From assembly GCF_057098645.1 (NCBI RefSeq), contig NZ_CM169472.1: DNA of 64,000 nt; one strand, given 5' to 3'. Under the pieces are notes generated by a model. It was given only the letters and a program-made list of their open reading frames with translations. It was not told the DNA's origin and made no database searches. Positions within the stretch are counted from its first letter, which is position 1. Every line of letters starts with the position of its first letter. Both the position numbers and the translations under genes were made by a program. Below are positions 9,499 through 9,580 of this stretch, piece after piece.

Positions 9499-9580
9499 TC
9501 GGATGCGACGCTGGCGCGTCTTATCCGACCTACGGGGACGCATGTGTAGGCCGGATAAGGCGTTTACGCCGCATCCGGCA
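9499..9580. repeat. REP/BIME-type palindromic units between convergent norW and hypF
   Basis: CGGATGCGACGCTGGCGCGTCTTATCCGACCTAC and inverted GTAGGCCGGATAAGGCGTTTACGCCGCATCCGGCA; the ORF-track peptides containing CRPDKAFTPHPAR are translation artefacts of this repeat. Confidence 0.8.

Follow-up and report, generated by a model that had tools for sequence, protein, structure and literature searches.

REP elements (palindromic units) of Escherichia coli are the subject of a literature that reportedly includes Stern 1984 and Gilson and Bachellier 1991-1999. Their classic setting, and that of the first REP descriptions, is the spacer between genes of one operon, where the upstream message is stabilised and expression of the downstream gene is lowered. 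Intercistronic REPs of this kind are said to have been described for malE-malF and hisJ-hisQ by Higgins in 1982 and Newbury in 1987. RayT binds the single-stranded form, which consists of GTAG plus a bulged hairpin, and cuts at CT (PMC3333891); mutations of GTAG abolish its activity. REP hairpins in RNA block 3′-to-5′ exonucleases and can terminate transcription partially in a Rho-dependent manner; where genes are arranged in tandem, a REP between them benefits the upstream gene, and REPs between convergent genes go along with higher expression of both (PMC8266576; bioRxiv 10.64898/2026.03.23.713779). The variance between REPs is large, their effects depend on the context, and no uniform effect on mRNA half-life is seen (bioRxiv 10.64898/2026.03.23.713779). 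According to Liang et al. 2015, as summarised in PMC12306157, translation of the upstream gene is lowered only if fewer than 16 nt separate the REP from its stop codon, by ribosome stalling.

The window, i.e. the whole 64-kb stretch of DNA analysed here, represents an E. coli O145:H28-type chromosome from srlA to cysJ. The flagged elements very probably belong to the ordinary E. coli REP (palindromic unit) family; three of the loci hold five clear units, and a sixth, decayed one was seen at a fourth locus (Table 1). They share with the published classes y, z1 and z2 (PMC3333891) the sequence, the GTAG/CTAC foot, the bulged hairpin, the extragenic 3′ position and the high number of dispersed copies, and every testable defining feature of the family was found in them. 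Nothing of substance differs: unit u1 carries two compensated stem changes, while u4 and u6 are decayed copies without GTAG. These REP elements are an already known feature which is present at the same loci in K-12 and adds nothing new to REP biology. Nevertheless, they provide clean natural examples, at named loci, of a change in tandem BIME copy number, of the absence of a single hairpin with CTAC kept, and of IS1397 and IS621 insertions into orthologous REPs.

Two of the loci can be compared with described BIME classes. The norW/hypF element resembles BIME-2 in consisting of a z2 and a y unit with a 12-nt linker and in its strain-variable tandem number; it differs from BIME-2, a gyrase-binding class, in being present as a single copy in the window. 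The element downstream of ascB resembles BIME-1, RIP or RIB in combining y with a short unit of z1-like type and in being single-copy. BIME-1, however, has a long L linker with an IHF site, whereas the ascB element has a 16-nt linker and a decayed z1. The IHF consensus WATCAANNNNTTR is absent from all four spacers, including both linkers. Because of its 16-nt linker without this consensus the ascB element does not agree with BIME-1 as defined, and 'atypical' describes it best. The unit between cysI and cysH is comparable to the intercistronic REPs of malE-malF and hisJ-hisQ and to REP325 (yjdMN), all of which lie between two co-transcribed genes, but REP325 comprises 12 units (2026 preprint) and the cysI/cysH spacer only a single one.

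REP units of the window

The window shows 99.96% identity to O145:H28 strain RM12761 (NZ_CP007133.1, 3375295-3439294), and the RefSeq annotation of this record was used as gene map. The first part contains srlAEBD, gutM, srlR, gutQ and norR, then norVW and the convergent hypF-hydN. The middle part comprises ascG, ascFB, the convergent higA-higB, a 251-aa ORF, hyc/hyp/fhlA genes, mutS and rpoS, on to cysDNC. The last part consists of iap, a CRISPR array and cas genes, followed on the minus strand by cysH, cysI and cysJ.

Table 1 Features of the four REP loci in the window, in order of position
Feature	Coordinates	Strand	Palindrome arms	Match to references	Predicted hairpin (kcal/mol; z-score)	Remarks
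u6, decayed z1 type	2991..3020	-		27/29 to z1	-18.2; -4.6	between srlD and gutM; nhmmer E-value 0.005
BIME flank motif CTACTGTGCCTAAAA	9482..9496					just past norW stop codon (9474-9476)
u1, z2 type	9498..9533	-	9498-9511 with 9516-9529	31/33 to z2	-20.8; -3.3	
linker GGGGACGCATGT	9534..9545					12 nt, between CTAC and GTAG ends; read directly
u2, y type	9546..9580	+	9550-9563 with 9566-9579	35/35 to y; 31/32 to crystallised K-12 REP	-20.9; -3.9	
u3, y type	16855..16888	-	16855-16868 with 16871-16884	34/35 to y; 34/34 to 356-element consensus	-21.4	
linker ATGTCGCACGAACTAT	16889..16904					16 nt; read directly
u4, decayed short z1-like	16905..16934	+	16909-16920 with 16922-16933	22/27 to z1 (weak)	-14.3; -2.4	
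u5, single z2	60813..60848	-	60813-60826 with 60831-60844	34/36 to z2	-21.9; -5.1 (as minus-strand RNA)	between cysI (stop 60865-60867) and cysH (ATG at 60791), both minus strand

All six units are imperfect palindromes of 30-36 nt with an internal mismatch, and all are located in intergenic spacers after 3′ ends, two sites between convergent and two between tandem genes. The original prediction had placed REP units at norW/hypF, downstream of ascB and between cysI and cysH, and its coordinates proved to be right to within 1 nt. Each of these three sites contains a G+C-rich imperfect palindrome with CTAC at its end or, on the other strand, GTAG at its start. The tetranucleotide is intact in four of the six units (u1, u2, u3 and u5), while u4 has GCAG and u6 GTAT. 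Unit u1 has GTAG at its 5′ end on the minus strand, so that the plus strand shows the inverted form with terminal CTAC. The units of each pair also resemble one another in inverted orientation (88% over 17 nt in one pair and over 16 nt in the other). Two or more units together, as required for a BIME, are present at 9498-9580 and 16855-16934 but not at 60813-60848 and 2991-3020, where single units are located; u5 is therefore a lone REP and not a BIME.

For alignment to the REP consensus, which had been proposed as a check, three REP sequences printed in PMC11208160 (Durrant et al., Methods) were used as class references, and as a second reference a consensus that PMC12306157 quotes for 356 annotated REP elements. 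The units match the published y, z1 or z2 references. At the rayT locus of K-12, the long form (TGCCTGATGCGACGC...GCGTC) was named z2 by Ton-Hoang et al. (PMC3333891), who state that z1 and z2 possess a TGCC/TGAT site and that y lacks it. According to this naming and the distribution of the site, the short TGCCTGAT form is z1. In a legend of Messing et al. (PMC3479197) the long REPs at the rayT locus are labelled 'z1'; for these we follow the naming of Ton-Hoang et al. (z2). The y and z2 sequences recur in the REPs that flank rayT in K-12.

Searches with half-sites supported the assignment. The 3′ REP half CTTATCMGGCCTAC was found seven times in the window with up to two mismatches, compared to 0.44 expected matches, and none of 100 shuffles reached seven; five of the seven matches are the claimed units. 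Taken by itself, the 5′ half-site has low specificity (20 matches vs. about 10 expected). An independent REP oligonucleotide, published for the rayT locus of K-12 and crystallised with RayT (PMC3479197), matches positions 9546-9577 with one mismatch and 16857-16888 with two (expected 0.00). While these half-site patterns worked, a pattern with a fixed loop found nothing because loop length differs between the classes. Units u1 and u4 escaped a fuzzy regular expression, and an nhmmer profile of the units recovered all five and additionally u6. As this profile was built from the window's own copies, the proof is limited to the independent references. The profile scan of the whole window revealed no further REPs beyond u1-u6 in the 64 kb. 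Rfam has no REP family, the K-12 record NC_000913.3 has no REP repeat features annotated, and the literature yielded nothing useful on REPs at cysI/cysH, ascB, hypF or norW specifically.

The single units u1-u5 are predicted to fold with -14.3 to -21.9 kcal/mol (z-scores -2.4 to -5.1), and each pair can also be folded as one long hairpin (-50.5 and -39.7 kcal/mol). All predicted hairpins of u1-u5 show the internal mismatch, which is lessened in u6 by a T-to-C change. In u1 two stem base pairs are altered on both sides with pairing retained, and u4 shows a compensated T-A to C-G stem change, its K-12 copy being nearer to z1. Both differences between u5 and the z2 reference are located in the loop. 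In u6 CATAC replaces CCTAC.

It had also been proposed that the elements mark operon boundaries. This applies to norVW vs. hydN-hypF and to ascFB vs. higBA, where convergent 3′ ends face each other, but not to the cysI/cysH site. The cysJIH genes form a single operon. Since u5 lies between these co-directional genes it is intercistronic and does not mark an operon boundary. It starts 16 nt past the cysI stop codon and ends 20 nt ahead of the cysH ATG; the Shine-Dalgarno sequence of cysH follows the unit closely on its downstream side.

The decayed z1-like hairpin between srlD and gutM was not part of the original prediction. Just before it, and 7 nt past the srlD stop codon, a further hairpin with a perfect stem of 9 bp is present at 2954-2976 (CGGAGATCC gttaa GGATCTCCG).

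Occurrence and variation among E. coli genomes

Of 5,426 complete E. coli genomes, 5,425 were matched by megablast queries containing a y or z2 unit, the median number of places per genome being at least 28-38. For the short z1 sequence the median was at least 21 near-perfect places per genome, all of them outside annotated genes among the matches listed. The genes flanking the REP units are single-copy. K-12 carries the same units at the same places, which assigns them to the conserved chromosome backbone. The rayT (tnpA-REP) gene is not located within the 64-kb window. With the K-12 gene as megablast query (1638-2135 of the rayT locus) a single copy with 92-100% identity was detected in 3,575 of the 5,426 genomes. 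About one third of the strains may thus have kept REPs without the transposase, or may carry a rayT copy too diverged for megablast.

The single-unit loci are widely present: a 201-base stretch around u6 is covered at ≥80% in 5,405 of 5,426 genomes, and a 241-base stretch around u5 in 5,419. Unit u6 is identical in K-12. Unit u5 contains ATCAGGCCTAC, the natural target of IS621 (PMC11208160).

For the norW/hypF element, a 241-base query (window 9420-9660) was matched at ≥80% in 3,054 of 5,426 genomes only. One copy of the BIME is present in the window and in K-12, while O128:H27, MS 200-1 and EH01-18-04-A have two tandem copies. In these three strains the norW-hypF spacer (compare window 9477-9603) contains z2, a decayed y, z2 and y in this order, and the flank motif CTACTGTGCCTAAAA also precedes the second z2 unit.

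The y unit orthologous to u2 is interrupted in its loop by IS1397 in strain Z1323HEC0477 (NZ_CP148323.1), and TCAC is duplicated at both junctions (200-300 and 1690-1720 of the norW-hypF spacer locus). IS1397 is known to prefer REP loops, and this insertion exemplifies that preference in nature.

The pair downstream of ascB also varies among strains. O157:H7 (PA20; spacer locus 4345-4360) lacks exactly the 33 nt of the u3 hairpin (window 16852-16884) and has kept CTAC, so that O157:H7 and the window differ by presence or absence of a single REP. In strain 492 (NZ_CP183114.1) IS621 is located in the unit orthologous to u4, and the 16-nt linker is inverted compared to the window. On the strand opposite to the locus the junctions (slash) read ...ATCGGGCCT/TGTAT... 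and ...ACAGTAT/CTACATG..., so that the CT core of ATCGGGCCTAC (ATCGGGCCT/AC) is the insertion point. The IS621 target-binding loop encodes the sequence ATCGGGCCTAC (PMC11208160). IS621 is a bridge-RNA recombinase insertion sequence, and in strain 492 it was seen at positions 2680-2720 and 3960-4000 of the ascB spacer locus. The same strain has higA without higB.

To the right of the pair the spacer towards hycI contains two inserts compared to K-12 and O157:H7. Homology to K-12 runs to 16953, 19 bp past the end of u4, and the first insert begins beyond this position. It spans 16954-17852, encodes higA and higB (Pfam HTH_3 and HigB_toxin) and is bordered by TCAG microhomology at 16950-16953 and 17849-17852. 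The second insert (17881-18607) contains most of the 251-aa ORF and has a 7-bp direct repeat, ACATCCC, at both ends; a 28-bp piece of the ancestral spacer remains between the two. The empty site of K-12 was matched at ≥80% in about 2,505 genomes and the full arrangement of the window in about 588. The ascB-hycI spot varies, and on its left-hand side it adjoins the REP pair, which is conserved.

Proposed roles and alternative readings

We propose that the past spread of REPs took the form of single-stranded DNA hairpins, which would have been handled by the tyrosine transposase RayT (TnpA-REP). Units u4 (GCAG) and u6 (GTAT) lack the GTAG required by RayT and should therefore no longer be substrates of this enzyme. 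When transcribed, the hairpins of about -21 kcal/mol would be expected to hinder 3′-to-5′ exonucleases in 3′ untranslated or intercistronic RNA, and they may bring about partial Rho-dependent termination. By analogy to described REPs, u5 should raise the level of the cysJI message relative to cysH, and the two pairs should shield the 3′ ends of four convergent messages (norVW and hydN-hypF; ascFB and higBA). Unit u3 starts 8 nt past the ascB stop codon (16844-16846) and would thus fall within the 15-nt range for lowered translation of the upstream gene. As the other gaps measure 16-25 nt, it is the one unit placed to affect translation. A separate possibility, which we judge improbable, is that this y unit lowers translation of AscB and thereby contributes to the asc operon being 'cryptic'.

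The units could also be neutral relics of the past RayT-driven spread that exert no regulatory effect at these loci. Copy number or presence is indeed strain-variable at norW/hypF and ascB, u4 and u6 have decayed with loss of GTAG, and the 2026 preprint (bioRxiv 10.64898/2026.03.23.713779) reported context-dependent effects without a uniform effect on half-life. Nevertheless, more than 99.6% of the 5,426 genomes cover, at ≥80%, the stretches around u5 (cysI/cysH) and u6 (srlD/gutM), and the stems of u1 and u4 were kept through paired changes on both sides, which makes a purely neutral state the less likely alternative, although one to be taken seriously. We consider it extremely unlikely that the hairpins are Rho-independent (intrinsic) terminators which resemble REPs by chance. 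They are G+C-rich stem-loops past stop codons, but a T-run does not follow the hairpin at any REP site, which fits REPs rather than intrinsic terminators; moreover, their sequence is that of the dispersed REP consensus, and the cysI/cysH unit lies inside an operon whose downstream gene still must be transcribed. A terminator scan gave no hit at the REP coordinates or elsewhere in these spacers and, in the stretches scanned, detected candidates only inside the hypF and higA coding sequences. The REP units account for the absence of intrinsic terminators after norW, hypF and ascB. Virtually no likelihood is left for real small proteins encoded by the ORFs with the peptide CRPDKAFTPHPAR. Such 74-aa ORFs exist at two loci (9503..9727 on the plus and 16704..16928 on the minus strand) and were part of the mechanically compiled ORF set. 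The common peptide, however, is simply what the y unit yields when translated, here at two loci unrelated to each other; hypF and ascB, encoded on the opposite strand, overlap with the ORFs, and these ORFs are not annotated in RefSeq, which calls none of the REP-containing ORFs. This agrees with the earlier suggestion that PDKAFTPHPA-like ORF peptides are translated REPs; the z2 unit at cysI/cysH is read as a separate 13-residue peptide. For annotation, the REP units thus explain the spurious CRPDKAFTPHPAR ORFs.

The remaining alternatives concern the ascB pair, which had been thought to abut a toxin-antitoxin segment and possibly to mark its insertion boundary. The first part holds loosely, as the pair neighbours a variable spot, but the second does not. 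An attachment or recombination site through which higBA entered would be in line with the distance of 19 bp between the pair and the left junction of the insert, with the structural variability of the ascB-hycI spacer among strains and with the fact that REPs are known targets of insertion sequences. The comparison of junctions across strains, however, identified the pair as backbone: K-12 has the same pair at the same place without an insert, with homology extending past it to 16953. The junctions of the higBA insert (16950-16953 and 17849-17852) consist of TCAG microhomology and not of REP sequence, the insert contains no recombinase or insertion-sequence gene (Pfam detected HigB_toxin and HTH_3 only), and the ACATCCC repeats at the ends of the second insert (17881-18607) are unrelated to REP. 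The insertion-boundary reading is thus already largely refuted, and we regard an attachment function of the pair as very improbable; in annotations it should not be read as an island boundary. A related and more general idea, which we likewise judge improbable, is that the pair is more than a passive neighbour, recombination at REP hairpins making the adjoining 20-30 bp a recurrent entry point for accessory modules. RayT, IS621-type bridge recombination or replication stalling might be the routes of such recombination. The same breakpoint (16953/16954) recurs across lineages, and together with the IS621 copy within the pair of strain 492 and the inverted linker this leaves some room for an entry point.

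Some further observations concern the regions outside of the REP units. The 251-aa ORF next to higBA (17849-18604, minus strand), which has no Pfam match, starts in one ACATCCC repeat and ends in the TCAG of the higBA insert, and therefore spans both junctions. The sole structural difference between RM12761 and the window affects the CRISPR array near iap (~50730-50760), which is 183 bp shorter in the window; this corresponds in length to about three repeat-spacer units. The only Rfam match in the window is the sok antitoxin RNA (RF01794; 98.3 bits, E-value 5e-21), found upstream of cysH at 59778-59934 on the minus strand. This match points to a putative hok/sok-type locus between cas3 and cysH.
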